Virus record (IMG/VR): IMGVR_UViG_3300005531_000248
Coordinates: 1 to 64,000 of that record
Source: a virus
Lineage: Duplodnaviria > Heunggongvirae > Uroviricota > Caudoviricetes
Reading direction: 5' to 3' (one strand)
DNA: 64,000 nucleotides
In this document: positions 2,270 through 57,063 of the stretch, one piece after another
Numbering within the stretch: the stretch's first letter is position 1
Layout of the letters: every line of letters starts with the position of its first letter
Position numbers and translations under genes: made by a program
Notes under the pieces: generated by a model
What the model was told of the DNA's origin: nothing
The model's database searches: none
What the model saw: the letters and a program-made list of their open reading frames with translations, nothing else

Positions 2270-2340
2270 GGTGATTTTATGTTGACGCTCTTCTCGGCGG
2301 TCTCGACGGTCAGACATGAGCCGCGTTCGCGCTCTGAAAG
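2270..2340 (-). repeat. RE-1 dispersed element, inverted orientation
   Basis: reverse complement reads cagagcgcgaacgcgg...ccgtcgagaccgccgagaagagcgtcaacataaaa. Confidence 0.7.
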
Positions 2341-2346
2341 GACTCT

Positions 2347-2958
2347 ATGAATATTTCAATTGGCAATATCCGCCTCTCCGGTGGTTCGCATCCGACCCGG
2401 GAACAAGGAACCTGCTTTATGGAGGCCGTGGCCTGGATCGCAAACGAGACGCACTCGGACCATCCAGAGTGTGTCTGTCCTGTATTCGGGGCGTTCATCC
2501 GGCGATTCCAGGACGACATTCCCGATAAAGAACGCCAGAAGCTGAAGCCTTATCTTGTGATGGCAATTGGAACGGCCGAAGACGGATTCGGAGAGCGCAG
2601 AGCGTGGATGTGCCTCGATTGGTACGTCCGCACCGTGCTGCCGATCTATCTCGAGTGCTTCGGTCACGTAAAGGAGGCGACCAATCTTAGATTGGTCGGA
2701 GAAATTTGTAGCGCCGAGACTTGGTCTGCGGCGAAGCCGAGTATTAGTCGTACCCTCGCCGGCCTCGCCGCCGCCCTCGACCTCGCCGCCCTCGCCGACC
2801 GCGCCACCCGGGCCGCACAACAAATCACGGAATCGGGATTTGCGCTGGTGGATCGAATGCTGCTGATCCAGTTGGAAAAACCCTCAGAGCGCGAACGCGA
2901 ACTGGCGCAACCTGTCGAGAAAGCCGAGGAGAGCGTTGACCACAAAGTAGGAGTCTAA
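2347..2958 (+). CDS. hypothetical protein; C-terminus runs into RE-1 copy
   Basis: ORF track; ATGA-type overlap with upstream leader ORF inside inverted RE-1; ends ...RERELAQPVEKAEESVDHKVGV. Confidence 0.5.
   Translation: MNISIGNIRLSGGSHPTREQGTCFMEAVAWIANETHSDHPECVCPVFGAFIRRFQDDIPDKERQKLKPYLVMAIGTAEDGFGERRAWMCLDWYVRTVLPIYLECFGHVKEATNLRLVGEICSAETWSAAKPSISRTLAGLAAALDLAALADRATRAAQQITESGFALVDRMLLIQLEKPSERERELAQPVEKAEESVDHKVGV
2885..2945 (+). repeat. RE-1 dispersed element (forward, subfamily A)
   Basis: cagagcgcgaacgcgaactggcgcaacctgtcgagaaagccgaggagagcgttgacc. Confidence 0.7.
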
Positions 2959-3127
2959 GAAAGCTCAAAAGCCCCAAAGAACCTTTATTGCGGAAAGTTC
3001 CCAGGGGCTTCGAGAAAGGAAATTGCTTTGCCTGAACCAAGAATACAACAAGTTGAAGAAGTAGAACAATACTCATCTTCCTTTACGTCGTCCTGCGGAT
3101 TGTAGATCAGTACTGAAGATGGGAATG

Positions 3128-3193
3128 ATTTTATGTCAACGCTTTCCTCAGCTATCTCGAAGGTCAGACATGAGCCGCGTGCGCGCTCTGAAG
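3128..3193 (-). repeat. RE-1 dispersed element, inverted orientation
   Basis: reverse complement: cccttcagagcgcgcacgcggctcatgtctgaccttcgagatagctgaggaaagcgttgacataaaa. Confidence 0.7.
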
Positions 3194-3411
3194 GGTCAGA
3201 GAGAGTTCGTCACCGTTTTGATCCTTGTGTAGCCGAGCCGAGTGAAACAATTCCGGACGAATGCGGCAGATACAAACTGAAATACGGCGACTACGCCCGC
3301 CACATTGAGACCTGTCCGAAGCCGTCATGTCGCGAGGTATATCAGAATCATCTGGACGTGCTACGGGCTTTCGGTATTCCGAGGAAGGACGCCGCAGCCA
3401 AGCGGTCCTAA
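3133..3411 (+). CDS. hypothetical Cys-containing protein whose 5' end lies inside inverted RE-1
   Basis: ORF track; C...C...C pattern (CVAEP..CGRY..CPKPSC). Confidence 0.3.
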   Translation: MSTLSSAISKVRHEPRARSEGSERVRHRFDPCVAEPSETIPDECGRYKLKYGDYARHIETCPKPSCREVYQNHLDVLRAFGIPRKDAAAKRS

Positions 3412-3540
3412 AAAGTTGAGGGCGCCGGAACCGGCGGAAACGGTCCAGGCGCCCAGGATGGAAAAACACTTAGTCATGGACAGAATACAGGAAAACGGTT
3501 CCCGAAAAAATGTCTCGATGCAGATCGAGGAGGCATCGCG

Positions 3541-3936
3541 ATGAATACTGACCCCTGGTATTCACGGCGCCGGAGTTACCTCAAGAAGGCGGGGCGTATC
3601 GAAGTCGGCAACGAGCCCGATCCCGCTCCGGACTGGATACACCGCATGCCCGAGCGAATCCGGGAAATTGTCGTTCGCGCCGCCAGCGAGTACGGCGTCT
3701 CGATCCGTATGGTGCTTTCTGGAATGCATGAAAGGCCCATCGTGTTGGCGCGGCGGCTGGCCATTCATCGCATCCGAAAATTAGCCGTCTCGACGCCGCA
3801 AATAGGGCGCTGGCTCGGTATGCATCATTCGAGCATCGTCTATCACTTGCAGAAGCCCTGCCCTCGCGGTCGGCGATTGCCAGAAGACTACGAATTAGGC
3901 GACGGCCCGGATGAAAGTGGGATATGGGCGATATGA
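3541..3936 (+). CDS. DnaA domain-IV-like helix-turn-helix DNA-binding protein
   Basis: ERPIVLARRLAIHRIRKLAVSTPQIGRWLGMHHSSIVYH resembles DnaA C-terminal DNA-binding domain (..aRq.AMyL.r.lT.~sl.eIG..fg~RDHsTV..a). Confidence 0.5.
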   Translation: MNTDPWYSRRRSYLKKAGRIEVGNEPDPAPDWIHRMPERIREIVVRAASEYGVSIRMVLSGMHERPIVLARRLAIHRIRKLAVSTPQIGRWLGMHHSSIVYHLQKPCPRGRRLPEDYELGDGPDESGIWAI

Positions 3937-3961: not shown

Positions 3962-4351
3962 GTGCCGGACGATGGAGGATCTGTGAATCAATGCCAATTC
4001 TGCGGGCAGCCTTCAACGCTACTTTGTGACGGGCGCATCTACGAGATAGCCTCGGGATCGTTTCGGGTGCCGCCGAATTTCGTCAACGGAAAGACGCGGT
4101 CCTGTGACGCGCATATCTGCCGCGCATGCGCGAAGAAAATTGGAGACGTACATCTCAACATGGGGCGGAAAGGCTGCCGTTGGGATACGCGCGATCTCTG
4201 CCCGGAATGTCAGAAGGTCCAGGATAAGCCGATACGCATTTCGTCCAATCTTCCGAGTGCGAACGATGCAACCCCTCAGCCCCAGAGCGCGAACGCGGAA
4301 AAGGCGCAGGCGACGAACGATCGCTCTCGAAGAGCGTCAACAACAAAATGA
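3962..4351 (+). CDS. Cys-rich zinc-binding-like protein; C-terminus in RE-1
   Basis: CQFCGQ...LLCDG...CDAHICRACAKK...CPECQK; ends PQPQSANAEKAQ... (RE-1 frame). Confidence 0.45.
   Translation: MPDDGGSVNQCQFCGQPSTLLCDGRIYEIASGSFRVPPNFVNGKTRSCDAHICRACAKKIGDVHLNMGRKGCRWDTRDLCPECQKVQDKPIRISSNLPSANDATPQPQSANAEKAQATNDRSRRASTTK
4272..4340 (+). repeat. RE-1 dispersed element (forward, subfamily B)
   Basis: cagagcgcgaacgcggaaaaggcgcaggcgacgaacgatcgctctcgaagagcgtcaacaacaaaATG. Confidence 0.65.
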
Positions 4352-4632
4352 CACCAAGCTTGCACGACTTAACCATCGGTGGAAGACAACGAAAGTTATC
4401 AGGACTGATTCGTGAACTTCAATTTCTAATTGAAGGCACTCCTGATGGTGGAGAAAAAGACTCTTTAGTAGAAGCAAATGAATGCTTAGCAGAAGCATTG
4501 AGCTTAATGGAATCAGCAAGAGAATTAGCTGGATCACTGACAACATCAGAACCATTGTCTTTCCCGCGCCAATCTGAGGTATTGGCGCAGACTGATTCGG
4601 CGTCTTCGTTGGGAGCTCCGTTCGATGAGTGA
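4348..4632 (+). CDS. hypothetical acidic protein, low-GC islet
   Basis: ORF track; start ATG immediately after RE-1 A-rich tail; 4380-4560 markedly AT-richer than surroundings. Confidence 0.35.
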   Translation: MTPSLHDLTIGGRQRKLSGLIRELQFLIEGTPDGGEKDSLVEANECLAEALSLMESARELAGSLTTSEPLSFPRQSEVLAQTDSASSLGAPFDE

Positions 4633-4963
4633 AACGAGCCAGATCCGCTCCGTCATGCGCACGGCTCCGAGTTTTGAAATAAGCGCTGAAGCAAGACTTA
4701 CGTGGTCGAACGGATCTTGCGGAAACCCCGGCTGTACCGATCCTGAGTGTTGTTGTTCGCTCTGCGGTAAGCCCATCGGCGTATCGGAAGACGATCCGCG
4801 CTGGGATCGACACGACGAGTATTGCGACGACTGCGATCTGTGCCGCGACCAGGTTCCTGTGATGCTGTTTCGGGGTGAAGGCAAAGCCATGCAGCAAGCC
4901 CAATTCCATATCAAATGCTTTGAGAAGATCGTTCGCATTAAACCCGGAGAGGTGATTCACTGA
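4625..4963 (+). CDS. Cys-rich hypothetical protein
   Basis: SCGNPGCTDPECCCSLCGKP...YCDDCDLCRD; ATGA overlap with next gene. Confidence 0.4.
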   Translation: MSETSQIRSVMRTAPSFEISAEARLTWSNGSCGNPGCTDPECCCSLCGKPIGVSEDDPRWDRHDEYCDDCDLCRDQVPVMLFRGEGKAMQQAQFHIKCFEKIVRIKPGEVIH

Positions 4964-5325
4964 TGGCCCGAAAAGCTACGACTAGCCTAACGATCTTCGA
5001 ACCGAACCAAAAGGAAAACTCGCAACCAAAGTTGAAGAGTTGGGCGCTGGTCGAGTTGTTCGGCCATCAAAGGATCGTAGGATATGTCTCGGAGCAGACC
5101 TTTGGGACGGGTGTCTTATTCCGTGTCGATGTGCCGGATCTGCTGAAGGACGGAAAGACGGTGCGGTCCGGTTTCACCCGCTATTTCGGGCTGAGCGCGA
5201 TCTACAGCATCACGCCGGTTGACGAAGCCACCGTGCGAGAACTACTGCCTTCCATCGACGGGACGCCGGCGGCACGACCGCTCTCACTCGGAAGCTATGG
5301 CGGCTACGAAAGAAGCGACTACTGA
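4963..5325 (+). CDS. hypothetical protein
   Basis: ORF track; start overlaps stop of previous (TGATGG). Confidence 0.45.
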   Translation: MARKATTSLTIFEPNQKENSQPKLKSWALVELFGHQRIVGYVSEQTFGTGVLFRVDVPDLLKDGKTVRSGFTRYFGLSAIYSITPVDEATVRELLPSIDGTPAARPLSLGSYGGYERSDY

Positions 5326-5406
5326 TGACGCACGCTCAACGACGCAGTTCCGAACGCGCTGAAACCTCAGTTCAGCGCGAGGCCACGGAAAGGACTGATG
5401 GGTAAA

Positions 5407-5577
5407 TGGACTGGTTTCTATTAGGATTCTTAGCTGGTATTGGTCTCATCTGGGGAATTCAAGGACTGAAGTACTTGGGCAAGCACAAAGAAGTACCTGA
5501 GATCTTTTCTCAACAACGTGATCTTGAACTGGATGAATTACGAAGGATGGCTGGATTAACAACGGAGAAGAAATGAT
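5407..5577 (+). CDS. small membrane protein (56 aa), low-GC islet
   Basis: MDWFLLGFLAGIGLIWGIQGL... by-eye translation; AT-rich like 2076..2258 and with a similar small-TM N-terminus. Confidence 0.3.
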
Positions 5578-5607
5578 GATTGAACTGTTTGGGCTGTGTT
5601 CTGTTTC

Positions 5608-5630
5608 GTGCCGCACTGGAGTAGCGGCAC
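5608..5630 (+). promoter_or_regulatory. HP-C leader hairpin (conserved loop ACUGGAGUA)
   Basis: GTGCCGC-actggagta-GCGGCAC, ~38 nt upstream of ATG 5668. Confidence 0.5.
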
Positions 5631-5667
5631 GGAGAAAGATGTCGTCGCTCGCTTGGGAGGTCGGTTC

Positions 5668-6045
5668 ATGAGCCAACACACGCCGGGGCCGTGGAGAGCG
5701 GAAAAGGTAGAGATGCCGCAGACGTGGGACTACTGGGAAATAAGCAGCGACTCTGAAATAGTTGCTGAAATAGACAACACTGACCGAACCACCGAGGTGC
5801 AAGAGGCCGACGCGCGGCTGGTCGCCGCTGCGCCAGAATTGCTTTCATCGCTGCGCGTAATCTTCGACCTTTCGAGGAACGGTTCATCCAACGTCGTAGA
5901 TGTGGACAAGCGCCTGCTCTCCATTGCTTCGGAGTGCCGACAAGCCATCACCAAGGCCGAGGGAGCCATTCAGAGCGCGAACGAGCAACTGGCGCAACCC
6001 GTCGAGACCGTTGAGGGGAGCGTTGCCATAAAAACAGATCCTTGA
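5668..6045 (+). CDS. hypothetical protein; C-terminus in RE-1
   Basis: ORF track 5596..6045; likely start ATGAGC at 5668 downstream of leader hairpin; ends QSANEQLAQPVETVEGSVAIKTDP. Confidence 0.45.
   Translation: MSQHTPGPWRAEKVEMPQTWDYWEISSDSEIVAEIDNTDRTTEVQEADARLVAAAPELLSSLRVIFDLSRNGSSNVVDVDKRLLSIASECRQAITKAEGAIQSANEQLAQPVETVEGSVAIKTDP
5971..6033 (+). repeat. RE-1 dispersed element (forward, subfamily A, consensus copy)
   Basis: cagagcgcgaacgagcaactggcgcaacccgtcgagaccgttgaggggagcgttgccataaaaa. Confidence 0.8.
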
Positions 6046-6374
6046 GATTACGAGTTTTGCTCAAATAACTGAGCAGAAGCTGAGCCGGGCAGCAACCCCG
6101 GTATATAGTTTTCACCGACAAGGGACTATCAAATGCCTGCTTTGAAACGAGGATTCGGAGCCTTCTCCTTAATGCGCCAAATTGCGGTGGATCTTCGGAT
6201 CTTCGTTTCAGCGGGGTCAGAAAGGAGAGCGCGCAGTTTAGATCAGCAGAGCACATGGGGGAACGTTCTATTCAACGTTACGGAACAGACAAGCAGCGAA
6301 AACTTGTCTGGATTACCAAGAGTAGGACGTCTTCCCTTAGTAATGAAAAAGAATTTAGGCCTTTGCGTCGTTTC

Positions 6375-6397
6375 GCACTGCACTGGAGTTGCAGTGC
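6375..6397 (+). promoter_or_regulatory. HP-C leader hairpin
   Basis: GCACTGC-actggagtt-GCAGTGC; stem differs from other copies with compensating changes. Confidence 0.5.
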
Positions 6398-6419: not shown

Positions 6420-6737
6420 TTGGGCGGTCCGGTCATGAGTCTCCGACAAGGCCCGAACGATTTGCTTAAGGCTCTTACGAGTGCGCAGACGGTGTTGCTG
6501 ATGATAGCGAATTGTCATCGCTGCGATCATTGTAGAAGGCGGGCGCTGGATTGTTTAGGGTACCAAGTGAATCCGGTGCTTGATCAAAAGCCGAACTTCG
6601 TAACCCCTAAGAAGCGCAAGTACAAACGCCGGGCACGGAGCGCCGCAAAGGAAACCATTCAGAGCGCGAACGAGCAAATCTCGCAACCCGTCGAGACCGT
6701 TGAGGGGAGCGTTGCCAACCAAAGGACCCCAAAGTGA
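6420..6737 (+). CDS. hypothetical protein; C-terminus in RE-1
   Basis: ORF track (alternative start ATGAGT at 6435); ends QSANEQISQPVETVEGSVANQRTPK. Confidence 0.4.
   Translation: MGGPVMSLRQGPNDLLKALTSAQTVLLMIANCHRCDHCRRRALDCLGYQVNPVLDQKPNFVTPKKRKYKRRARSAAKETIQSANEQISQPVETVEGSVANQRTPK
6660..6724 (+). repeat. RE-1 dispersed element (forward, subfamily A)
   Basis: near-identical to copy at 5971. Confidence 0.8.
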
Positions 6738-8782: not shown

Positions 8783-8998
8783 ATGATCCAAGAACACCAG
8801 TGGATAGAGAGCGAACCATTTCTGTGGAGTTGTAAAAAGTGCGGTGATGGTCCGTACCACGGTATGAGACCGCTTTCCAAGTGTCCAGGAAGACCAACGT
8901 TCGGAAGGCTTCAGAGCGCGAACGCGGGAAAGTTGCAACCGACGAACGAAAGCCGTGAAGAGCGTCGAAGCATAAGTAACCAACTGCGAGTTGAGTAA
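8783..8998 (+). CDS. small zinc-ribbon protein; C-terminus in RE-1
   Basis: WSCKKCGDGPYHG...SKCPGRP; ends GRLQSANAGKLQP. Confidence 0.35.
   Translation: MIQEHQWIESEPFLWSCKKCGDGPYHGMRPLSKCPGRPTFGRLQSANAGKLQPTNESREERRSISNQLRVE
8912..8975 (+). repeat. RE-1 dispersed element (forward, subfamily B)
   Basis: cagagcgcgaacgcgggaaagttgcaaccgacgaacgaaagccgtgaagagcgtcgaagcataag. Confidence 0.6.
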
Positions 8999-10863: not shown

Positions 10864-13631
10864 GTACCGCTGCTGTTTCTGTCCAGAAATCGATGTTAAC
10901 GGGAGCTATCTGCCCGGAGTGCAAGCTACATCGGGGCCATCGCGCGAATTGCTCCAAAGGCCGGATAAACGAGTCTAGCGATCGCAGTCTCGAAGCCTAC
11001 CGTGAATTTCTGAAGCGCAAGGTATTGCTCTCGGACGAGTACGGGTTTGAAGTGGCCGATTCCGAGATCCACGCATCGCTGAAGCCTCATCAACGCATTG
11101 CAGTTCAGTGGGCCGTCCGTGGCGGCCGTCGGGCATTATTCGAATCCTTCGGTCTGGGAAAAACACGTCAGCAGCTTGAAATTCTGCGCCTCATCGTTCA
11201 GCGTGTGGGCGGCCGCGGCTTGATAGTGGCGCCGCTGGGTATACGACAGGAATTCCAGGCCGAAGCTGCGGAGCTCGGAACCGATCTGAAGTTCATCAAG
11301 TCCGATGCGGAAATATCGGGCGACGGACTGTACGCCACCAATTACGAGAGTGTCCGGGAAGGCAAACTTACAGCGTCCCGTTTCGTCGCGGCATCGCTCG
11401 ACGAGGCGGCCATATTGTCCGGCTTCGGCGGCGTGAAGACCTTCCGTGAGTTTATGCGGCAGTTCGACGCCGTGAAATACCGCTTTGTGGCCACGGCCAC
11501 GCCTGACCCGAACGAGTACATCGAACTTCTGGCCTATGCTGCCTTCCTGGGAGTAATGGAAGTCAGCCAAGCCAAAACCCGGTTTTTCAAACGGGACTCC
11601 ACCAAAGCCGATCATCTAACGCTGCACCCTCACAAAGAGCGGGAATTCTGGCTATGGGTAGCGTCCTGGGCTTTGTTCCTCGACAAGCCATCCGACTTCG
11701 GACCTGAGTTCTCAGACGAGGGCTATTCCCTGCCACCGCTCGATATACAGCTCCACGAGTTGCCAGTGGATCATGCTGCAGCTCTGCCGGATCGCGAAGG
11801 CCAGGGCAGACTGTACCGGGAATCGGCGCAAGGTCTGAGTGAGGCCGCACGCGAGAAGCGCGAGACCTTGGATGCCAGAATCGCGGAAATGAAGCGCATC
11901 GTCGACCTGGAGCCGGAGGAACACTTCATCCTTTGGCATGACCTCGAAGACGAGCGCCGCTCGATCAAGAAACTACTTCCCCAAGCCGCGGACGTATTCG
12001 GAATGCAGCGGACCTCGAAAGGCGGCTCCGAGAAGCTGGAGCAGTCCTTGATGGATTTCGCACAGGGCAAAGTTCAATACCTTGCCGCCAAACCATCCAT
12101 GTTTGGCGCCGGTTGCAATTTCCAAAAGCACTGCGCGCGTGCCATCTTCTGCGGGATCAATTACTCGTTTCGGCACTTCATCCAGGCGGTACACCGAATC
12201 TATCGCTTCTTGCAAAACAGAACGGTCACCATTCACCTGATCTACGCCGAAAGCGAGAAGAGCGTTTTATTGGCACTCCTCGAAAAATGGGAACGCTACA
12301 AACAGCAGTGCGCCAAGATGCGCGAGATTATCGCGGAGTTCGGACTGGCCCGAGAAGCCCTGAAAAGCGCCATGACACGCTCGCTCGGAATAACGCGCAT
12401 CGAGCGCGGCAGTGAGCATTATCTAATGGTCAACAACGATTGCGTGGAAGAGTTGCATCGTATGGAGTCCGGCAGTATCGATCTGGTTGTAACGTCCCCG
12501 CCGTTCTCGCACATGTACGAGTACTCGCCCAACTACGCCGACTTCGGCCATTCAGATTCGAACGAGCACTTTTGGGAGCAGATGGACTTCATGATTCCCC
12601 AGTTGCTGCGCGTTCTCCGGCCAGGCCGCACGGCCGCTATCCACGTCAAGGACCGCGTAGTGCCGGCTGGAATTTCGGGGCTAGGTTTTCAGACGATTTA
12701 TCCGTTCCACGCCGATTGCATCGCTCATTTCGTCAAAGCAGGTTTCGGCTTCATCGGCATGAAGACCATCGTCACGGATGTGGTGCGCGAGAATAACCAG
12801 ACCTATCGCCTCGGGTGGTCCGAGCAATGCAAGGACGGCACCAAGATGGGCTACGGGCTGCCGGAATACTTGCTGTTCTTCCGTAAGCCTCCAACAGATA
12901 CCTCCAATGGATATGGCGATAAGCCGGTTGTGAAGAGCAAACCGCTATGCGTGTCGGAGGCCGGCGAGATCGTTTCGTTTGACCGTGATCTTCCAATTCA
13001 GCCGGGAAGCGGGTACTCGCGATCACGCTGGCAGATCGACGCCCACGGATTCATGCGCTCGTCCGGCAATCGACCGCTTCGTCCAGAAGACCTCAACGGA
13101 CTGACCCACGAGCAGATTTTCAAGCTGTTCCGCAAGTACTCATCTGAAGAGATCTACGACTTCGAGCAGCACGTGAGGCTGGGCGAGGAGCTGGAGCAAA
13201 AAGGCACTCTGCCGGTCACGTTCATGCTCTTACAGCCGCAGTCCTGGCATCCGGACGTATGGACCGACGTAACGCGGATGCGCACGCTCAACAGTTCCCA
13301 GGCCTCGAAAGGCCGGGAGATGCATCTATGCGCGATGCAGTTCGATGTGTGCGATCGAGTCATCGCTCAGCTTTCGATGCCCGGAGAAGTGGTGCTAGAC
13401 CCCTTCGCGGGAATCGGAACCGTTCCATCGCGCGCGGTGATGCAGGGCCGATTCGGCCTGGGAATTGAACTGGCGCCGGGGTATTTCGCGGATGCGGTGA
13501 GCTATTGCAGAGCGGCCGAGGAGAAACGCGCGGCGCCCACACTGTTCGATCTGACGGAACTAGATTCCTCTGAGCGCGAACGCGGCCTGCCTCAACCCGT
13601 CGAGACCGCCGAGGGGAGCGTCAACATATAA
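10860..13631 (+). CDS. SNF2-family helicase fused to beta-class N6A/N4C DNA methyltransferase; C-terminus in RE-1
   Basis: N-terminal HQRIAVQWAV...FGLGKTRQQL...LIVAPLGIRQEFQ (SNF2_N), DEAAIL box, helicase-C GKVQYLAAKPSMFGAGCNFQ; C-terminal DLVVTSPPF (motif IV) then LDPFAGIGTV (motif I); ends SERERGLPQPVETAEGSVNI. Confidence 0.8.
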   Translation: MSTAAVSVQKSMLTGAICPECKLHRGHRANCSKGRINESSDRSLEAYREFLKRKVLLSDEYGFEVADSEIHASLKPHQRIAVQWAVRGGRRALFESFGLGKTRQQLEILRLIVQRVGGRGLIVAPLGIRQEFQAEAAELGTDLKFIKSDAEISGDGLYATNYESVREGKLTASRFVAASLDEAAILSGFGGVKTFREFMRQFDAVKYRFVATATPDPNEYIELLAYAAFLGVMEVSQAKTRFFKRDSTKADHLTLHPHKEREFWLWVASWALFLDKPSDFGPEFSDEGYSLPPLDIQLHELPVDHAAALPDREGQGRLYRESAQGLSEAAREKRETLDARIAEMKRIVDLEPEEHFILWHDLEDERRSIKKLLPQAADVFGMQRTSKGGSEKLEQSLMDFAQGKVQYLAAKPSMFGAGCNFQKHCARAIFCGINYSFRHFIQAVHRIYRFLQNRTVTIHLIYAESEKSVLLALLEKWERYKQQCAKMREIIAEFGLAREALKSAMTRSLGITRIERGSEHYLMVNNDCVEELHRMESGSIDLVVTSPPFSHMYEYSPNYADFGHSDSNEHFWEQMDFMIPQLLRVLRPGRTAAIHVKDRVVPAGISGLGFQTIYPFHADCIAHFVKAGFGFIGMKTIVTDVVRENNQTYRLGWSEQCKDGTKMGYGLPEYLLFFRKPPTDTSNGYGDKPVVKSKPLCVSEAGEIVSFDRDLPIQPGSGYSRSRWQIDAHGFMRSSGNRPLRPEDLNGLTHEQIFKLFRKYSSEEIYDFEQHVRLGEELEQKGTLPVTFMLLQPQSWHPDVWTDVTRMRTLNSSQASKGREMHLCAMQFDVCDRVIAQLSMPGEVVLDPFAGIGTVPSRAVMQGRFGLGIELAPGYFADAVSYCRAAEEKRAAPTLFDLTELDSSERERGLPQPVETAEGSVNI
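13571..13630 (+). repeat. RE-1 dispersed element (forward, subfamily A)
   Basis: gagcgcgaacgcggcctgcctcaacccgtcgagaccgccgaggggagcgtcaacatataa. Confidence 0.75.
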
Positions 13632-13639
13632 GAACCCTC

Positions 13640-14707: not shown

Positions 14708-14827
14708 CGTGCGCGGCCTGCGGCGGTCCACTTGGAGAGACCTCCGAGGTGTGGCCCTGTTGCTACTGTTCTAGATGCCTGCTCACTGGACCAGCTCGGG
14801 CGCGAGAGCATGGAGCGGTGCCCGCCT

Positions 14828-14890
14828 CAGAGCGCGAACGAGCAACTGGCGCAACCCGTCGAGAGCGGCGAGAAGAGCGTTGCCATAAAA
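14828..14890 (+). repeat. RE-1 dispersed element (forward, subfamily A)
   Basis: cagagcgcgaacgagcaactggcgcaacccgtcgagagcggcgagaagagcgttgccataaaa. Confidence 0.8.
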
Positions 14891-14959
14891 TCACTTGATC
14901 AAAAATCCAACGATTCCTCCCTTAATTTCTAAGACTCTTTTTTGGATCTTAGTCAGTGA

Positions 14960-15364: not shown

Positions 15365-15399
15365 TGAACCATGCATTTGTATGGTCAGAGACTATGCTT

Positions 15400-15468
15400 T
15401 TTTGTTGGCAACGCTTTCCTCGGCGGTCTCGACGGGGTGAGGCTGGTCGCGTGCGCGCTCTGAAGGGC
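15400..15468 (-). repeat. RE-1 dispersed element, inverted orientation
   Basis: reverse complement: cccttcagagcgcgcacgcgaccagcctcaccccgtcgagaccgccgaggaaagcgttgccaacaaaaaa. Confidence 0.7.
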
Positions 15469-18131: not shown

Positions 18132-18167
18132 GCAGTGACGAGGAGAGCGTTGCCAACAAAAAACACC
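18132..18167 (+). repeat. RE-1 partial copy (3' box only)
   Basis: gacgaggagagcgttgccaacaaaaaacacc ahead of GTG start 18184. Confidence 0.5.
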
Positions 18168-21419: not shown

Positions 21420-21740
21420 ATGAACTGGCAAGAGTGGCTGCACATCGCTGGATCGGTATTAACAGCAGCAGTAGCCCTTGGTGTATATCTGATCAAGCGC
21501 AAGGACGAAGAGGAAGAAGGCCGAAGAGCAGCATTACTCGAGCTGGCGGTAACCAAGGCCGTGAATGCCGCGCGCGAGCAAATCATGGACAGGGTAGACC
21601 GGGTGAAGTACGACATTTCCAAGCAGCTCGAGGACTACATCTCCCGGAACGAGTTTGAGCGGGAGTTTAAAAGCATCCGCGGCGAGCTGCGGGGGCAAAG
21701 CGATGTCATTAAAGAGATCGCACGCCGGCAGCGCCCATGA
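21420..21740 (+). CDS. membrane-anchored coiled-coil protein
   Basis: N-terminal TM IAGSVLTAAVALGVYLI; ATGA overlap with recombinase gene. Confidence 0.35.
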   Translation: MNWQEWLHIAGSVLTAAVALGVYLIKRKDEEEEGRRAALLELAVTKAVNAAREQIMDRVDRVKYDISKQLEDYISRNEFEREFKSIRGELRGQSDVIKEIARRQRP

Positions 21741-22315
21741 CCGTTGCTCTGTACGCCAGGGTATCGACGCAGGATCAGAAGTGCGACCTGCAGCTTACGG
21801 AATTGCGGGGATACGCGGCGCGGTCCGGCTGGGATGTGGTCGAATACGTGGACCACGGGGTTTCTGGCACCAAGCGATCGAGGCCGGCGCTGGACAGGCT
21901 GATGAATGATGCGCGGCTGAAGAAGTTCGGGGCCGTGCTGGTCTGGAAGATGGACCGCTTCGGACGGTCGTTGCAGCAGCTCGTCGACAACGTACAGACC
22001 CTTGATCGGGCGGGCGTACGCTTCATTGCGGTTACCCAGTCGATCGACACGGACGAGCGCTCGCCGATGGGTAAGTTTCTGATGCACCTGTTCGCGGCCT
22101 TTGCCGAGTTCGAACGAGACCTGATCGTGGAGCGGGTTAAGGCAGGCGTGGCGGAAGCCAAACGCCAGGGAAAGCACTGCGGCCGACCAGTCCGGGTGTT
22201 CCGGCGCGACCGGGTGGCGCAAATGCGCGCCGAGGGGCGTTCCTGGCGGGATATAGCCTGGGAACTCAAACTGCCGGTCACGACCGTGCGCCGGGCTGTG
22301 CCAAAAGTCTCCTGA
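21737..22315 (+). CDS. small serine recombinase (resolvase/invertase family)
   Basis: VALYARVSTQDQ catalytic Ser motif; GRSLQQLVDNVQTLDRAGVRFIAVTQSIDTD; C-terminal HTH; 192 aa. Confidence 0.9.
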   Translation: MTVALYARVSTQDQKCDLQLTELRGYAARSGWDVVEYVDHGVSGTKRSRPALDRLMNDARLKKFGAVLVWKMDRFGRSLQQLVDNVQTLDRAGVRFIAVTQSIDTDERSPMGKFLMHLFAAFAEFERDLIVERVKAGVAEAKRQGKHCGRPVRVFRRDRVAQMRAEGRSWRDIAWELKLPVTTVRRAVPKVS

Positions 22316-25493: not shown

Positions 25494-25497
25494 CCCG

Positions 25498-25560
25498 GAG
25501 CGCGCACGCCGTAAAGTCTCTGACCGTTACCGATCGTCGAGACAAGCGTTAACAACAAAA
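25498..25560 (+). repeat. RE-1 dispersed element (forward, subfamily B)
   Basis: ggagcgcgcacgccgtaaagtctctgaccgttaccgatcgtcgagacaagcgttaacaacaaaag; begins two codons after TerL TAG, in frame. Confidence 0.7.
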
Positions 25561-25584
25561 GAACTCACAAGGAGAAATCATTCC

Positions 25585-44804: not shown

Positions 44805-44862
44805 TGAGAGCATGGGAGACGAAACCCGGCGGTTTCTTCTCCCATGAACCCACTTTTTCCCT
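44805..44862 (+). repeat. HP-B hairpin element
   Basis: gctgagagcatGGGAGAcGAAACCcggcGGTTTCttCTCCCatgaacccactttttccctgatt. Confidence 0.6.
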
Positions 44863-44866
44863 GATT

Positions 44867-44930
44867 CAGAGCGCGCACGCCGTAAACCTGAATCCGTAAT
44901 CGACCTTCGAGAAAAGCGTTAACAACAAAG
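44867..44930 (+). repeat. RE-1 dispersed element (forward, subfamily B)
   Basis: cagagcgcgcacgccgtaaacctgaatccgtaatcgaccttcgagaaaagcgttaacaacaaag then ATG 44935. Confidence 0.7.
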
Positions 44931-44934
44931 CATT

Positions 44935-47599: not shown

Positions 47600-47742
47600 T
47601 GATGCTGAGAGTACGGGAGACGGAACCCGTTTGGGGATACCCACGGTTCGCACCGCGCTGCTAACAGGGCGTATCGCCGTCGGTTCCTTCTCCCGTAGGC
47701 CCACTTCTTCCCTGAATCGCTGAGCAGAACAACCCCGACATT
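47600..47742 (+). repeat. HP-B hairpin element with ~60-bp internal insertion
   Basis: gctgagagtacGGGAGAcGgAACCcg[insert]cggttCCTTCTCCCgtaggcccacttcttccctgaat. Confidence 0.5.
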
Positions 47743-47746
47743 GCCT

Positions 47747-47810
47747 CAGAGCGCGCACGCGGGAAAGTTTCTGACCGTGTTCGACCGCTGAGAAAAGCGT
47801 CGAAAACAAA
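47747..47810 (+). repeat. RE-1 dispersed element (forward, subfamily B)
   Basis: cagagcgcgcacgcgggaaagtttctgaccgtgttcgaccgctgagaaaagcgtcgaaaacaaag. Confidence 0.7.
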
Positions 47811-47830
47811 GCCATACGAATGGACTATTT

Positions 47831-52970: not shown

Positions 52971-53005
52971 CGGTCTAACGTTGACCTGTTCGTGCTTAGA
53001 ACACC

Positions 53006-53311
53006 TTGATCGCCACCATGCGCAGAGCCTTGGTTATCTCGCTGGCTGATCTTCGTTTTGTATCGGTCAGATGCCAGCACTGTCGCACGCGCGTTGTATT
53101 GGATCTTCAGGAACCTTCTGAACACGCAACCAGGTTCGGAGTGCTGCTTCCAAATGAGTGTCCGGGCTGCCGCAAGAGCTATGACACGGCGTTGGCTCCC
53201 GGGTTGGTGGACCTGCAAAACTCTTACCGGAATCTGCTCAAAATCGAAAAGCAGATCGAGTTTCAAAGCGGTGAGATAGAGCACGCGCCGGGAGAGGACC
53301 GAGTTCCATGA
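53006..53311 (+). CDS. zinc-ribbon protein
   Basis: CQHCRT...ECPGCRK. Confidence 0.4.
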   Translation: MIATMRRALVISLADLRFVSVRCQHCRTRVVLDLQEPSEHATRFGVLLPNECPGCRKSYDTALAPGLVDLQNSYRNLLKIEKQIEFQSGEIEHAPGEDRVP

Positions 53312-53541
53312 GCGAGACCTGGCAGGTGTTCCGGCTGGCAGAGCTGGACTCGATCAGTTTCGAGTGTCCCAACTGCAAAACCGTGGTAACGTTCAGCGGC
53401 CACGGACAAATCGTTACGCAAGCTGAGCGGAACTGCCCTGGCTGCAATAAAGAAATCCCTGGAGCCGGTGAGATTCTCGGCCTGTACTGGCGGTTTTATC
53501 AGCAGGGCAAAGACAAGGTCACTCTCAGGGCAAAGGCCTAG
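53308..53541 (+). CDS. zinc-ribbon protein (paralog of previous)
   Basis: ECPNCKT...NCPGCNK; ATGA overlap. Confidence 0.45.
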   Translation: MSETWQVFRLAELDSISFECPNCKTVVTFSGHGQIVTQAERNCPGCNKEIPGAGEILGLYWRFYQQGKDKVTLRAKA

Positions 53542-53622
53542 TACCGGTACTTCTTCGCTTTTACCCAAGTAACAGTACGTCAGCGTTTGCCACGCCTCCC
53601 ACAAGCGCTTATACTTTGGCTG

Positions 53623-53805
53623 ATGGCGAAGAGAAAGAATCCGGCCGCAGTTGCTCTTGGGCGCCGCGGCGGTCAAAAGCGAGTACCTAAGGGATTTGCA
53701 ATGATGCCGCCGGAGACCAGACGCGAAATAGCCCGCGCCGGCGCGCTGCTTCGATGGAAGAACAAAGCGCGTTCCGTCCAGGTCGGCCAAACGCACCTAG
53801 CGTAA
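53623..53805 (+). CDS. small basic protein, paralog of 52734..52970 (start ATG 53623)
   Basis: MAKRKNPAAVALGRRGGQKRVPKGFAMMPPETRREIARAGALLRW; TATACT at 53610-15, 7 nt before ATG. Confidence 0.45.
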   Translation: MAKRKNPAAVALGRRGGQKRVPKGFAMMPPETRREIARAGALLRWKNKARSVQVGQTHLA

Positions 53806-54525: not shown

Positions 54526-55049
54526 TTTCCGGGAGGACTTGCCTCCGTTCCTCATTGCCGGAGCCGTCCCCGGACATATGCGGAGCGGCACCTAATCTCC
54601 TTGCGGGCTAACCCGCGCCGCTCCGTATCGTGACTTTGGATGTACACCGTCATCATAAACGTCGATTCCCCCGACCGGTTGAAACGAGTGCATACGGTCT
54701 TGGGCCAGTGGGCCTTGAGACTCAACTGTCCGCAATGGCAGGTCGATTTCTCTGACAAAGCCAAGGCTCTTTTGGCCGTTTATAACTTGAACGGAATCCC
54801 TGGAGTGCGGGCGACCAAAGCAGGATGGGAATGAGTGCCTGGTTCCTTCGATGAGTCTTCCAACACAGTTTTGCTGCACCCGGTCCCGTCTGATTTCTCA
54901 CCAGTAGAACACCGATAGCACAGCGATCATCCAGCCAGGCTCCCGGCTCTCGGGGGCCTTTTTTCTGCCCGTCTCCGCAGCCTCGCTGGGTGCAGCAAAA
55001 ACGCACGATTACAGTTCAGTTGACCGACATCCCGCACAAGAAAACCATG

Positions 55050-56522
55050 CTTCGAAAACTCTTACTGATCCTCCCCTTATTCCTGGCCTCGCTCTATTCG
55101 CAAAACGCCGGCTTGTCTCCCTATCCCAAGCTGCAGTTCTTTGACAACAACGGTGTGGCCTGCTCAGGGTGTCTGCTCTATAGCTATCTGGCCGGAACGA
55201 CAACGCCCCAGGCGACCTATACGGATTCGACCGGTTCTTTCCCGAATTCAAATCCGGTTGTGGCGGACTCGGCCGGAAGGATGAGTGTCTGGCTGGGGGC
55301 GATGGCGTACAAACTGGTCCTGCAAACCTCGGGCGGATCGACGCTGTGGACCGTGGATAACGTCGTGTCCCCGGTGCTTGCGAACTATTTATCGTTGAAC
55401 GGCGGTACGCTGGCCGGAAACGTATTATCGTCGGGAGCAACAAATCTCGGCAACACCTCCAATCCCTTCGGCTCGTTGTTCTTGAATCAGGCCTTGGTCA
55501 TGAGCGGATCCACCGTTGTGGATTCGGGCCGCAACGCCACGGTGCAAAACCTGACGATCAACGGAACGTGTACAGGATGTGGAAGTGTTTCTGGATTCCT
55601 GCCGCTGACCGGCGGCACCTTAACCGGAAACCTGGTCATGAACGGCGGCGGTGTGCTGTTTGGCGCCAACACCGTAATCGACACCAACCGGAACGGGACG
55701 TTCAATAATCTGACGATTACCGGGACGTGCACAGGCTGCGGGAGCGGCGGCGGAGGCGGCGCGTTTCTTCCGCTGGCCGGCGGGACCATGGCGGGCTCAA
55801 TCCAGTGGGCCGTGGATGGAATCTACAACCTCGGCAACATTGCCGCCAAGGCGGCGGGCATCTACGGGGCTAATTTCTATGTCGGGACCCAGGTGGTTCC
55901 CTTGTCGGGCGGGGCCAGTCTGGGAAGCAATATCCTGCCGTTCTCTAACATCTGGGGCCAGCAGTTCACCGGCGGAAACGCGAACTTCGTCAATGTCACG
56001 ATTACCGGAACGTGTTCAGGGTGCGGGAGCGGCGGCGGAGGCGGCGGGGGCGGAGCAAATACGTCCTTGTCCAACCTGACAGCACCAACGGCCATCAACA
56101 CCTCACTGTGGCCGGCAGCATCGGGTGCGGCGGATATCGGAGCGGCTAACCACTACTGGTCCAACGGCTTTTTCGGCGGTCAGCTAGAAACTTCAAACCT
56201 TGAGATCGTTTTCGGAACTCCAAATAGCATCACAGACTTTTGGAATCTACAACCGAATGGAATACACATTCTTGATTTGAAGGATTCATCGGCCAATACT
56301 CTAATGCGTTTTTATACAGTCTTTGGAGTAGGGTCTTCCGCATATTTTGTCATGAACGCAAATCTGTATCCCAATGGCGCCGGCCTAAACCTCGGGGCTC
56401 CCGGATCTGCGACAACCTGGCAAACACTGTATCTCTCGTCCGGCGTCAACATCAACGGCACGGCAGGGCATACCGGAGGAACCTGTTCGCACTGGACGGG
56501 CGGAATTTGCGACGCGCCCTAA
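55050..56522 (+). CDS. secreted Gly/Thr/Asn-rich repeat protein (tail-fibre/adhesin-like)
   Basis: signal peptide MLRKLLLILPLFLASLYSQNAG; three copies of NLTI(N/T)GTC(T/S)GCGS followed by Gly runs. Confidence 0.55.
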   Translation, partial: LRKLLLILPLFLASLYSQNAGLSPYPKLQFFDNNGVACSGCLLYSYLAGTTTPQATYTDSTGSFPNSNPVVADSAGRMSVWLGAMAYKLVLQTSGGSTLWTVDNVVSPVLANYLSLNGGTLAGNVLSSGATNLGNTSNPFGSLFLNQALVMSGSTVVDSGRNATVQNLTINGTCTGCGSVSGFLPLTGGTLTGNLVMNGGGVLFGANTVIDTNRNGTFNNLTITGTCTGCGSGGGGGAFLPLAGGTMAGSIQWAVDGIYNLGNIAAKAAGIYGANFYVGTQVVPLSGGASLGSNILPFSNIWGQQFTGGNANFVNVTITGTCSGCGSGGGGGGGGANTSLSNLTAPTAINTSLWPAASGAADIGAANHYWSNGFFGGQLETSNLEIVFGTPNSITDFWNLQPNGIHILDLKDSSANTLMRFYTVFGVGSSAYFVMNANLYPNGAGLNLGAPGSATTWQTLYLSSGVNINGTAGHTGGTCSHWTGGICDAP

Positions 56523-56539
56523 ACCCCAACTGACCTACA

Positions 56540-56866
56540 ATGATTTATAAAAGGAGCTCGAATACCTTGCGCACACTCTGGATCGCGGTTTTCGTTTTCT
56601 TGATTATGGTTCCGGCATCGGCCGCGGAGCCTGACAAACAGGCCCCTCCGAAGCCGTCTTTTGAGCTGCGTTCCGCTTTCTGGCGCGCGCGATCGGAGTT
56701 TTTTGCCGCCCAGGATGCCCTCGACAAGGCCAGCGCCGCTCTCAACGCCGCAGTCCAAAAGCTCAGTGCTGCCTGCGCGGACACGGAGACGCTGGCGTTC
56801 GATAATGCGGGTGAACCGTCCTGCTCGCCCAAAACTCCGCAACCAGCCCCCGAAACCAAGAAGTAG
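56540..56866 (+). CDS. small secreted protein
   Basis: signal peptide; TAG stop followed in frame by RE-1. Confidence 0.45.
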   Translation: MIYKRSSNTLRTLWIAVFVFLIMVPASAAEPDKQAPPKPSFELRSAFWRARSEFFAAQDALDKASAALNAAVQKLSAACADTETLAFDNAGEPSCSPKTPQPAPETKK

Positions 56867-56875
56867 CCAGCGCCT

Positions 56876-56938
56876 CAGAGCGCGAACGGGCAACTGTCTC
56901 AACCCGTCGAGAGCGGCGAGAAGAGCGTTGCCATAAAA
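56876..56938 (+). repeat. RE-1 dispersed element (forward, subfamily A)
   Basis: cagagcgcgaacgggcaactgtctcaacccgtcgagagcggcgagaagagcgttgccataaaa. Confidence 0.8.
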
Positions 56939-57063
56939 TCAGCTTCACCACAAAACATCTCTTAGTCTCAACAACATCTTCAAAGCCAGACTCCTGCTCA
57001 TAACCTTCTTCTTCTAACTGAAAAAGAAGTTCTTCCTGAGCGGGTGTCCCGGAGTGTGTCTAC

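Follow-up and report, generated by a model that had tools for sequence, protein, structure and literature searches.

A translatable repeat of about 70 bp at the gene junctions of a small group of related temperate phages

We find that a prophage carrying an Xre-type repressor, analyzed here as a stretch of 64,000 nucleotides (the window), contains a real DNA-level repeat of about 70 bp that has no coding capacity of its own. This repeat, RE-1, is confined to a small group of related temperate phages in which its distribution is patchy, and its translatability is under selection. Rather than a promoter, an RNA structure or a protein tag, RE-1 most resembles a spacer that is mobile or recombines and is tolerated. 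We propose, with a probability of roughly 40%, that it is a non-autonomous junction element that is spread by recombination and tolerated because translational coupling is preserved.

A profile built from the copies identifies 14 full copies in the window (11 plus, 3 minus), all at E <= 2e-11, and a covariance model recovers the same set (Table 1). Beyond the full copies, a single 3' half and a single weak 5' half are present. With up to two mismatches allowed, the 5' box CAGAGCGCGMACG is found 21 times, 12 of them exact, compared with 7.7 occurrences expected and a maximum of 14 in 100 shuffles. A sequence-only reading of this DNA had listed the copies, sorted them into two subfamilies and placed them at gene boundaries; the profile search of the window finds all of its coordinates correct, both subfamilies exist, and the boundary position is borne out.

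Table 1. Copies of RE-1 in the window and a candidate trans-acting factor. Profile coordinates, where they differ, are in brackets.
Feature	Position	Strand	Class and context	Score
RE-1, full	2272..2340 (2273-2338)	-	Class A (GCGAACG); inverted relative to plus-strand genes	covariance model 65.1 bits
RE-1, full	2880..2948 (2883-2948)	+	Class A; within 3' end of gene 2347-2958; box spacing 47	
RE-1, full	3126..3195 (3127-3193)	-	Class C (GCGCACG); inverted; ATG 3133 in A-rich end opens ORF 3133-3411	
RE-1, weak half (5' part)	4251..4281	+	Immediately upstream of next copy; 5' box with 2 mismatches	E = 0.43
RE-1, full	4281..4349	+	Class A; 3' end of ORF 3962-4351; stop TGA overlaps ATG 4348 (ATGA)	
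RE-1, full	5967..6036 (5969-6035)	+	Class A; 3' end of gene 5668-6045 (P22_Y8K6 / phrog_1273)	
RE-1, full	6655..6725 (6658-6723)	+	Class A; 3' end of ORF 6420-6737; stop overlaps GTG 6734	
RE-1, full	8906..8978 (8909-8977)	+	Class A; within small ORF 8783-8998, itself after HerA-like gene	
RE-1, full	13565..13634 (13568-13633)	+	Class A; 3' end of helicase-methylase gene 10860-13631; stop in A-rich tail	
RE-1, full	14823..14893 (14826-14892)	+	Class A; directly after sigma gene, within small bridging ORFs 14704-14898 and 14732-14932	
RE-1, full	15398..15467 (15400-15464)	-	Class C; inverted; mini-ORF from ATG 15394	
RE-1, partial (3' box only)	18137..18163 (18137-18161)	+	20 nt before GTG 18184	profile E = 0.0016; covariance model E = 0.007
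RE-1, full	25496..25563 (25495-25560)	+	Class C; intergenic, between TerL stop (25491-25493) and ATG 25585	
RE-1, full	44862..44932 (44865-44931)	+	Class C; intergenic, ending 3-4 nt before ATG 44935	
RE-1, full	47740..47812 (47745-47811)	+	Class C; intergenic, ~20 nt before ATG 47831	
RE-1, full	56870..56941 (56874-56940)	+	Class A; downstream of gene 56540-56866 (TAG stop)	
Small serine recombinase (resolvase/invertase type)	21737..22315	+	Candidate trans-acting factor	PF00239, E = 3e-46

Each unit has a 5' box, C(T/C)TCAGAGCGCG(A/C)ACGC, and a 3' box, GAG-R-R-(G/A)AGCG(CC or TY)RMC, that runs into an A-rich end. The core AGAGCGC(G/C)AAC is common to both boxes as a direct repeat, and the box spacing is 47-50 bp in 44 of 47 copies. 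The 3' box is genome-specific (GCGT in all window copies, GCGCC elsewhere), subfamilies are common to different genomes, and decayed half copies are present, as is typical of repeat families. A single unit lacks terminal inverted repeats and a fixed target-site duplication; the direct repeats that flank copies average 4.26 nt versus 3.65 +/- 0.26 in controls.

RE-1 is conserved beyond this genome, in a few phages. At least four further metagenomic phage contigs carry it. Contig A is a complete genome of 41.8 kb and has at least 31 copies; L209 has 21-24 copies in 18 kb, L193 has 10 in 13.7 kb, and L199 has 2. No copy lies near TerL in 80 TerL relatives, none was confirmed in 185,579 bacterial species genomes, and the 10 kb of host DNA flanking this prophage has none. 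Between phages whose common proteins are only about 30% identical, RE-1 is ~75-80% identical. In three distant phages the P22_Y8K6 gene ends in RE-1 (window 5668-6045 and two orthologues, at the same place), and the helicase-methylase gene likewise ends in RE-1 in three distant phages, the L209 orthologue included. The all-plus late operon of contig A holds 6 inverted and 7 co-oriented copies, each occupying an intergene gap. Orientation tends to alternate (p = 0.017 and 0.024), by which deletion-prone direct repeats are avoided.

A co-oriented copy lengthens the upstream ORF by about 20 codons and replaces the gene's natural end. Entry of the ORF is mostly in a single frame, and its stop, at +59 to +75, overlaps the next start, so that it falls on or beside that start codon (ATGA or TAATG), and the copy carries a purine-rich Shine-Dalgarno-like run, GAGRRGAG, 9-12 nt ahead of it. 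An inverted copy lies 1-14 nt past the upstream stop and gives an ATG (reverse complement of CATAAAA) and either the first ~23 codons of the following ORF or a bridging mini-ORF; the ORFs opened this way have 22-100 codons in one consistent frame. Such leader ORFs had been noted for the inverted window copies, and we find them running from ATG 2279 to TGA 2348-2350, overlapping ATG 2347, and from ATG 15394 to TAG 15478-15480, one base short of ATG 15482, while the ORF from ATG 3133 has 92 codons. Independent JGI gene calls for L209 agree, with the upstream stop and next start in or at co-oriented copies and, for 6 of 7 inverted copies, a start codon 4-6 nt within the copy. The favored box spacing is a multiple of three in co-oriented copies and a multiple of three plus one in inverted copies (remainders 0/1/2: 22/11/4 and 2/15/3, respectively; Fisher p = 0.0003). 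Spacing modulo three depends on orientation; therefore, it is translatability that is selected, and translational coupling in the operon is kept whichever way RE-1 points.

A close parallel for this arrangement is in cluster K mycobacteriophages, whose SAS/ESAS repeats are also present in many copies per genome, end a few bases before a start codon, carry a Shine-Dalgarno-like purine run, can contain the upstream gene's stop, and have an extended conserved upstream part, a similar overall size and a genome-specific consensus (PMC3203893). A leader or ribosome-binding role for the 3' box of co-oriented RE-1 copies is plausible. However, SAS is 13 bp long and with few exceptions has a single orientation, and ESAS consists of paired 17-bp inverted repeats (PMC3203893), whereas RE-1 has direct-repeat boxes about 48 bp apart and about 30-40% of its copies are inverted, supplying a start codon instead of preceding one.

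The statement that RE-1 is always in frame with the upstream gene stands in part. Copies 4283, 5971, 6660 and 8912 are entered as CAG-AGC-GCG-AAC. At copies 2885 and 13570 the 5' box is entered in another frame and the common frame is regained through a spacer shorter by 1 nt, and the statement fails for copies 25496, 44867 and 47747, which are intergenic and untranslated. The shared frame raised the idea of a conserved C-terminal tag, ..LQSANAGK..E.AE.SAN.., on many proteins, added in places by amber read-through. The same tail does occur on unrelated ORFs in several genomes, and TAG 56864-56866 is in the common frame, 4 codons upstream of copy 56876. However, the TerL TAG is out of frame (read-through would yield PGARTP and then TAA), third codon positions in the boxes are as invariant as the others, between phages too, and the extreme C-terminus is unconserved. 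Moreover, about one copy in three is read in a different frame or, when inverted, on the opposite strand, three window copies are untranslated, and the boxes have no fixed mutual frame across all copies. A functional peptide tag is largely refuted by these results, and we give it hardly any credence.

RE-1 also has no conserved RNA fold. Across 40 copies RNAalifold finds 4 invariant pairs but no covariation, the z-scores of single-copy folds lie between -1.6 and +1.2, and RE-1 has no match in Rfam. Within a polycistronic mRNA, forward copies could still pair with inverted ones into long duplexes, giving an RNase III-style cut or stabilizing gene-sized mRNAs, or the repeat could be a protein-bound mRNA site. 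Every copy is in a transcribed junction, and with alternating orientation complementary boxes of 16-20 nt lie on both sides of most segments. But neighboring arms, which are from different subfamilies, are complementary in the boxes only, many copies, such as those at window 4283-14828, are solo and direct, and ribosomes translating both arms would melt the duplex. Given also the lack of intramolecular structure, we consider an RNA-level signal very unlikely.

Near-invariant boxes at a fixed physical spacing, with the core in direct repeat, are what would be expected if both boxes were sites for a sequence-specific phage or host DNA-binding protein that, bound at many junctions, regulates or silences prophage transcription or organizes the genome. 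Within one genome, all subfamilies have the same fixed 3' box variant, which suggests co-evolution with a trans factor, the window prophage has an Xre-type repressor, and a DNA-bound complex could work in both orientations. The persistence of RE-1 at orthologous gene ends despite the low protein identity, together with the near-invariant boxes at 47-50 bp, counts against a junction element, as a functional protein-binding site would also look like this. The stoperators of cluster A mycobacteriophages provide a precedent, with dozens of asymmetric gene-border sites across a temperate phage genome and a genome-specific consensus (PMC9283540, PMC6550527). Yet stoperators are 13-14 bp (13 bp for sites of this type), bound by the immunity repressor and oriented with transcription (PMC9283540, PMC6550527), whereas RE-1 is 70 bp, bipartite and in both orientations, and no repressor is conserved among RE-1 genomes. 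Indeed no DNA-binding protein is common to all of them, Xre, sigma and resolvase all being missing from contig A, and the link between spacing and frame is not predicted and would have to be a secondary constraint. An operator-like array is, in our view, unlikely.

Another proposal is that an alternative sigma factor, the FliA/ECF-like sigma of the phage (14126-14707) or one from the host, uses RE-1 as a promoter and 5' leader. The -35 would be GAAC/GCAC in the 5' box and the -10 CGT 16-17 nt downstream, with transcripts starting near GACCG/CCGAG and the 3' box as a conserved leader with a ribosome-binding site. By inspection, about half to two-thirds of copies show GAAC/GCAC-N16-17-CGT. A sigma of 193 aa containing regions 2 and 4 is encoded in the window (TIGR02937, 79 bits; FliA_WhiG partial), L209 has a sigma-r4 protein, and 1-20 kb shows no enrichment of sigma-70-type promoters (4 found versus 8.2 expected). 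In the window 11 of 14 copies are co-oriented with genes, and class-C copies lie 4-25 nt ahead of late-operon heads, a regulatory appearance that also counts against a junction element; in L209, copies 8728(-) and 9452(+) point outward at a divergent junction. However, the complete contig A genome has no sigma-domain protein, no other RE-1 contig contains a relative of the window sigma, and about 40% of contig A and L209 copies oppose the genes inside long co-directional operons, those in L209 being systematically class C. In addition, the putative -10 is the least conserved part of RE-1, and the most conserved 16 nt would fall upstream of or at the -35. The promoter proposal is thereby weakened, and we judge it rather improbable.

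The remaining candidate is the serine recombinase, for which RE-1 copies would be sites. Crossover would occur at the near-palindrome CGCG-AA-CGCG (class C: CGCG-CA-CGC) in the 5' box with the 3' box as an accessory site, and segments between inverted copies would be invertible or excisable cassettes, as in shufflons or integrons. Recombinase genes of the resolvase/invertase type are present in the window, L193 and L209 (37-42% identity), with a copy of RE-1 immediately upstream of the gene in the latter two. Through alternation, inverted copies bound most segments, and many '(-) ORF (+)' units of 0.2-1.2 kb are found. The central dinucleotide of the class (AA or CA) co-varies with a 3' box base (28 AG, 7 CA), a difference that would make the classes recombinationally separate. 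Like integron attC and shufflon/invertase crossover sites, RE-1 is a repeat at each cassette's 3' end with conserved ends and a variable middle, but it has no attC-type hairpin or integron integrase. Its symmetry is limited to the inner 4+4 bp, the outer half-sites (HTH-bound in Hin, Gin and resolvase) being asymmetric, and contig A, the genome richest in copies, has no transposase or recombinase that we could find. Direct copies (25496, 44867, 47747, 56876) flank essential structural genes, whose loss by resolution would be lethal, partner arms resemble each other no more than random pairs do (0.49 vs 0.49), and the only duplicate assemblies available are identical, with no rearrangement between independent assemblies. 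We regard dedicated recombinase sites as improbable.

Of the options raised by the sequence-only reading, a mobile in-frame element like those of Rickettsia fits best, with copies in both orientations at junctions, translated either way and patchy among phages; the mobility itself we infer. Rickettsia palindromic elements and prokaryotic MITEs are likewise non-coding, multi-copy, patchy repeats with subfamilies that survive in translated sequence through an open frame (PMC10969869). In contrast, the Rickettsia elements are ~150 bp, palindromic and inserted within genes, MITEs have terminal inverted repeats and target-site duplications (PMC10969869), which a single RE-1 unit lacks, and RE-1 is at gene ends and starts, in phages. 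The PeSL (promoter-early stem-loop) cassettes of T4-type phages are also short (~70 bp) conserved gene-border repeats, dense among small accessory genes; PeSL and RE-1 alike offer homology through which recombination inserts, deletes or exchanges ORFs, with a dedicated recombinase identified for neither (PMC2839356, PMC4122927). PeSL, however, combines a sigma-70 early promoter with a terminator stem-loop and is in direct orientation and untranslated (PMC2839356, PMC4122927), whereas RE-1 has no sigma-70 motif or stem-loop, is translated, and occurs in either orientation, also within late operons.

We propose that the RE-1 family may multiply and be homogenized by inter-copy recombination (copy/paste, gene conversion or gene-cassette exchange), perhaps assisted by a putative box-binding protein, and that copies would last only at gene junctions and only in ribosome-readable form. 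As repeated homology at gene borders, RE-1 copies would be natural break-points for modular shuffling.

The dispersed repeat described in the sequence-only reading is a real family, recovered by both a nucleotide profile and a covariance model. Using nhmmer, we find 14 full copies of this element, RE-1, in the window (E <= 2e-11; 11 on the plus strand and 3 on the minus strand, with the window genes nearly all plus), together with two incomplete copies. A covariance model using sequence only, built from 40 copies of three genomes, returned the same window set. The 5' box, CAGAGCGCGMACG, occurs 21 times in the window at two or fewer mismatches, 12 of them exact, against an expectation of 7.7 (maximum 14 in 100 shuffles); here the short 3' core alone has no significance and the whole-copy profile does. 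Each copy opens with a near-invariant 5' box, C(T/C)TCAGAGCGCG(A/C)ACGC; next comes a middle region of variable sequence containing weak motifs (often GGGAAAG, CCGT and GACCG, in that order). It closes with a 3' box, GAG-R-R-(G/A)AGCG, which continues as TTGCC, TCAAC or TTAAC in the window versus CCAAC in all other genomes, and with an A-rich end, CA(T/A)AAA. The two boxes are direct repeats of a core AGAGCGC(G/C)AAC and, measured from where the 5' box begins to the AGCG within the 3' box, lie 45-51 nt apart (47-50 nt in 44 of 47 copies).

We found no close relative of the window among deposited phages. Genome and metagenome scans for RE-1 were made with exact patterns, and match counts in the viral and metagenome scans were near the estimated chance level apart from a few multi-copy contigs. 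Contig A (IMGVR_UViG_3300032893_000124, identical to Ga0335069_10001210) carries 28 copies in 35 kb and 3 in the remainder; because an independent ENA assembly (41,776 bp) matches the JGI contig (41,806 bp) after circular permutation, it represents a complete genome. Three further metagenomic contigs are L193 (45 kb), with 10 copies in 13.7 kb, L199 (86 kb), with 2 copies, and L143, with 2-3 weak ones. Contig L209 was retrieved from a set of 5.8 billion proteins with a profile of the RE-1-encoded tail peptide (22 aa, lengthened with upstream residues) and holds 21-24 copies in 18 kb, one per 750 bp. Between phages RE-1 is ~75-80% identical and its boxes nearly 100%; the proteins these phages have in common are few, at ~30-40% amino-acid identity. 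The presence of one repeat family in several otherwise distant phages is a distinctive new fact. RE-1 is absent within 10 kb of TerL in 80 phages whose TerL is 35-70% identical, and a scan of 185,579 bacterial and archaeal species, one genome each, returned only single, unconfirmed, chance-level pattern matches, which rules out a host-wide repeat as far as testable.

The window is part of a prophage. Its DNA is also found in two longer contigs, one from ENA (k141_774551, 160 kb) and one from JGI (122 kb). Bacterial genes (Nramp/Usp and He_PIG) stand 1-8 kb to the left of the window, and the 10 kb of host DNA left of the prophage holds no RE-1 copy. A pair of outward-facing sigma-70-consensus sites at 51900-53650, adjoining the only cluster of minus-strand small genes, may be a lysogeny switch and shows that the host uses canonical promoters. 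These and other features are collected in the table.

Features of the prophage and of related RE-1 contigs (window coordinates unless another sequence is named; L210 1-9384 lies to the left of the window, and L211 extends beyond its right edge)
Feature	Position	Observation
Bacterial Nramp/Usp and He_PIG genes	L210 1-9384	left of window position 1
C5 cytosine methylase	617-1912	
Bridging mini-ORF of an inverted copy	2279-2350; contig A 8728-8799	ends on next start
DnaA_C-like HTH protein	3541-3936	
Incomplete RE-1 copy	4251-4281	weak 5' half
RE-1 copies with stop/start overlap	4283, 6660	many more in contig A and L209
Gene with homologue in L193 and L199	4963-5325	
P22_Y8K6/phrog_1273 protein	5668-6045; contig A 39005-39346; L193 192-611	~30% identity
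Helicase fused to N6/N4 methylase	10860-13631	923 aa
Xre/HTH_3 repressor-like gene	13640-14080 (minus)	convergent with helicase-methylase gene, divergent from sigma gene
FliA/ECF-like sigma gene	14126-14707	
Class C RE-1 copies, inverted	3190, 15462	
Incomplete RE-1 copy	~18137-18163	3' half; start of the sole sigma-70 match touching RE-1
Small serine recombinase	21737-22315	Resolvase domain (E = 3e-46), C-terminal HTH
Class C RE-1 copies, late region	25496, 44867, 47747	intergenic, untranslated, 4-25 nt before first gene of late blocks
Stretch with no confident ORF (codon-usage map)	43326-44864	~1.5 kb, directly upstream of RE-1 copy 44862-44932
Minus-strand small genes	51929-52606	
Sigma-70-consensus site	52690-52661 (-)	TTGACA-18-CATAAT
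Sigma-70-consensus site	53587-53615 (+)	TTGCCA-17-TATACT
Strongest intrinsic-terminator-like hairpin of late region	54937-54959	10-bp stem, 7 G-C pairs, T run; directly before gene 54990-56522
Extra full RE-1 copy	L211 8410-8475 (window ~67789-67854)	~3.8 kb past window right edge, after a 1372-aa gene
GerE/LuxR-type HTH protein	L212 (part of contig A) 367-603	78 aa

The placement of RE-1 at gene boundaries holds for every copy, and the frames assigned to it earlier needed correction. The upstream ORF usually enters a co-oriented copy, one pointing the same way as the surrounding genes, in the frame CAG-AGC-GCG-AAC. For instance, in the L150 part of contig A this frame has at least 43 upstream open codons in 10 of 10 copies, and each of the other two frames does in at most 2 of 10. 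The ORF then stops at +59 to +75, where its stop overlaps the next start (ATGA, GTGA or TAATG). In tight copies only, that start is preceded at 9-12 nt by a purine run, GAGRRGAG, and the distance from a window copy to the next start is 0-145 nt. It is extremely improbable that the translated element serves as a functional peptide tag, whether or not appended by amber read-through: its third codon positions are invariant, the frames and strands read vary, and so do the extreme C-termini. The amber TAG said to lie in frame before the copy at 56876 does so, the sole such case; that of TerL is out of frame.

Inverted copies start 1-14 nt past the upstream stop, and their A-rich end has the gene-strand sequence TTTTATG. 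This ATG opens either a bridging mini-ORF or the downstream ORF, the latter always in one frame (M-L-A-L-S-S-x-V..G-V-R-A-L-K), and for 6 of the 7 inverted copies of L209 the gene start called independently by JGI lies 4-6 nt within the copy. Box spacing follows orientation, with values of 0, 1 and 2 modulo 3 in 22, 11 and 4 co-oriented copies versus 2, 15 and 3 inverted copies (Fisher p = 0.0003; p = 0.0012 by automated classification). Physically the boxes stay some 48-49 bp apart, and the direction of translation fixes the final base of length. The inverted share is 3/14 in the window, 11/28 in contig A and about 8/21 in L209, and the all-plus late operon of contig A contains 6 inverted and 7 co-oriented copies. 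Orientation tends to alternate along the genome in contig A (19/27, p = 0.017) and L209 (15/20, p = 0.024), and not significantly in the window. There are many short units of an inverted copy, an ORF and a co-oriented copy, with ORFs that are mostly repeat-encoded (for example, P0006: MLALFS....QSANEQLAQPVESVEKSAD). RE-1 is a bipartite repeat at the DNA level that occurs only in a small group of phages and lies at junctions in either orientation; selection keeps it translatable and able to pass ribosomes on to the following start codon. Its bidirectional translatability and orientation-matched length classes are distinctive new facts; we did not find translation in either orientation with a matched length class in the papers on PeSL, SAS/ESAS, stoperators or MITEs.

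A further distinctive new fact is the division of RE-1 into two classes. GCG-A-ACG occurs with G-AGCG in 28 copies and GCG-C-ACG with A-AGCG in 7, a near-perfect co-variation with one exception, in L209, where inverted copies are all class C and co-oriented copies class A. Because neither A·G nor C·A is a base pair, the co-varying positions mark classes, A and C. This is the only strong covariation by mutual information, and a structured RNA was rejected as a reading of RE-1. RNAalifold, run on 14 and then 40 copies to check for RNA structure as the sequence-only reading had suggested, gave no structure and no covariation, and no single copy folds better than its shuffles. Rfam had no match at gathering score in the window, and the one match it gave in L209 at E <= 1 lies outside the copies. 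That RE-1 acts as an RNA duplex or processing signal is very unlikely.

Might RE-1 instead be a promoter with its leader, read by an alternative sigma factor? The window encodes a sigma gene, and GAAC/GCAC-N16-17-CGT can be seen by inspection in roughly half to two-thirds of copies. However, this motif falls in the least conserved part of RE-1, contig A has no sigma, and co-directional operons contain systematically inverted copies; we judge this unlikely. The phage sigma was also dropped as a factor common to these phages: a peptide-pattern scan and a k-mer protein search found no relatives, tblastn had no match in the other RE-1 contigs, and among 98 contig A ORFs scanned against Pfam none was a sigma. 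Scans for a sigma-70 promoter or intrinsic terminator yielded nothing beyond chance; no sigma-70 consensus lies within full copies, and positions 1-20 kb hold 4 matches versus 8.2 expected. The resemblances of the middle to the sigma-28 consensus, of the 3' box to rrn/lambda boxA and of class-C copies to a 16S rRNA segment were judged coincidental, and a literature search with the box sequence returned nothing relevant.

The helicase-methylase is the sole protein found in all four best-sampled RE-1 genomes. The P22_Y8K6/phrog_1273 protein, with motifs HTPGPW and ARLIAAAPELL, has an RE-1 copy at its gene end in three of three phages; we considered it as a hidden transposase and rejected this, since small phage proteins with these motifs are common. 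Boxes that are invariant and regularly spaced, and copies that end orthologous genes in distant phages, are equally expected of a protein-binding regulatory site. An operator-like array for a DNA-binding protein is possible if unlikely, as the Xre protein is not conserved among RE-1 genomes and both orientations occur within one operon. In contig A, which has neither sigma nor recombinase, the GerE/LuxR-type protein is a possible box-binding candidate. The small serine recombinase has orthologues in L193 and L209 (37-42% identical), and RE-1 copies could be its crossover sites. Yet the enzyme is absent from the complete contig A, and of the layout of hix, gix and res sites, in which a 2-bp core is flanked by inverted half-sites of ~12 bp each, RE-1 shows symmetry only at CGCG-AA-CGCG, with asymmetric outer half-site positions; this role is quite unlikely. 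Unlike integron attC sites, which use a single-strand hairpin and a tyrosine integrase, RE-1 forms no hairpin; no integrase domain was present in the proteins scanned.

Among known repeats, the closest kinds are PeSL, SAS/ESAS, stoperators and in-frame RPE/MITE repeats (PMC10969869). RE-1 lacks defining features of each and is a variant of the phage gene-junction repeat; in its working it comes nearest to a hybrid of a PeSL/SAS junction cassette and a translated repeat of the RPE type. The PeSL of T4-type phages, for which modular exchange was shown experimentally (PMC2839356), carry a sigma-70 early promoter, absent from full RE-1 copies, and a stem-loop terminator, which RE-1 also lacks. The SAS/ESAS of cluster K mycobacteriophages, which have no known function, are similar in size, in an SD-like run beside starts and in a genome-specific consensus (PMC3203893), but consist of a 13-bp SD-containing motif 3-7 bp before starts in one orientation, whereas RE-1 occurs in both and at 0-145 nt. 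Stoperators (PMC9283540) have an orientation tied to transcription and a cognate repressor; RE-1 has both orientations and no conserved repressor. Like a MITE, RE-1 is small (~70 bp), multi-copy (14 to at least 31 per genome) and without transposase coding. MITEs, however, have terminal inverted repeats and a related autonomous element or transposase in trans, whereas the RE-1 boxes are direct, it takes two separate copies to form an inverted repeat, and contig A has no transposase or recombinase domain. The Rickettsia palindromic element also lies in frame within coding sequence, but it is a palindromic hairpin inside genes, whereas RE-1 has no fold better than shuffles and no consensus structure and sits at ORF ends and starts. 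An RPE-like element is the best supported of the possibilities raised earlier; RE-1 itself has no palindrome.

Based on these data, we propose, with a probability of about 0.4, that recombination, both among copies and from phage to phage, spreads and homogenises the family, which would be tolerated because translational coupling is preserved; as repeated homology at exact gene borders, its copies would promote modular exchange. The spread by recombination is suggested by the patchy occurrence of the family, the sharing of subfamilies, box variants peculiar to single genomes, half copies in decay and orientation alternation, the last because deletion-prone direct repeats around dispensable genes are thereby avoided. 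Gain or loss of a copy was not seen in the insertion-polymorphism comparison, in which duplicate assemblies were identical and TerL relatives were too distant and lacked the downstream gene; an apparent strand flip in L214, a sequence compared there, was a gene-calling difference only. The longest direct repeat flanking RE-1 averages 4.26 nt versus 3.65 +/- 0.26 in shuffled flank pairs; a few reach 7-8 nt, and neither position nor length is fixed. No transposase or recombinase domain that might mobilise RE-1 was found in the complete contig A.

A quite improbable alternative is that the phages carry a cassette system for integron- or shufflon-like gene shuffling, with RE-1 copies as its translatable ends. 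Segments between inverted class-C and forward class-A copies (0.2-1.2 kb, 0-6 small genes) would then be moved, inverted or exchanged between phages by a dedicated protein reading both boxes, perhaps the small serine recombinase where present or another factor elsewhere, and the recombination sites would also serve as coding linkers, preserving translation across the operon. The partner arms of inverted/co-oriented pairs show no similarity above that of random pairs.

To our knowledge, most phage gene-border repeats (PeSL, SAS/ESAS, stoperators) have no known function, and such repeats offer some of the rare visible hints as to the regulation and shuffling of phage genomes. RE-1 makes up to about 5% of a phage genome and is threaded through operons without breaking translational coupling. 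It also misleads gene callers, which report conserved "tails" or "leaders" on unrelated proteins and small ORFs that are almost all repeat. If RE-1 is mobile or recombinogenic, it would explain, in concrete and testable terms, how modules are exchanged precisely at gene borders; if it binds a regulator, it would represent a new prophage-wide control system.
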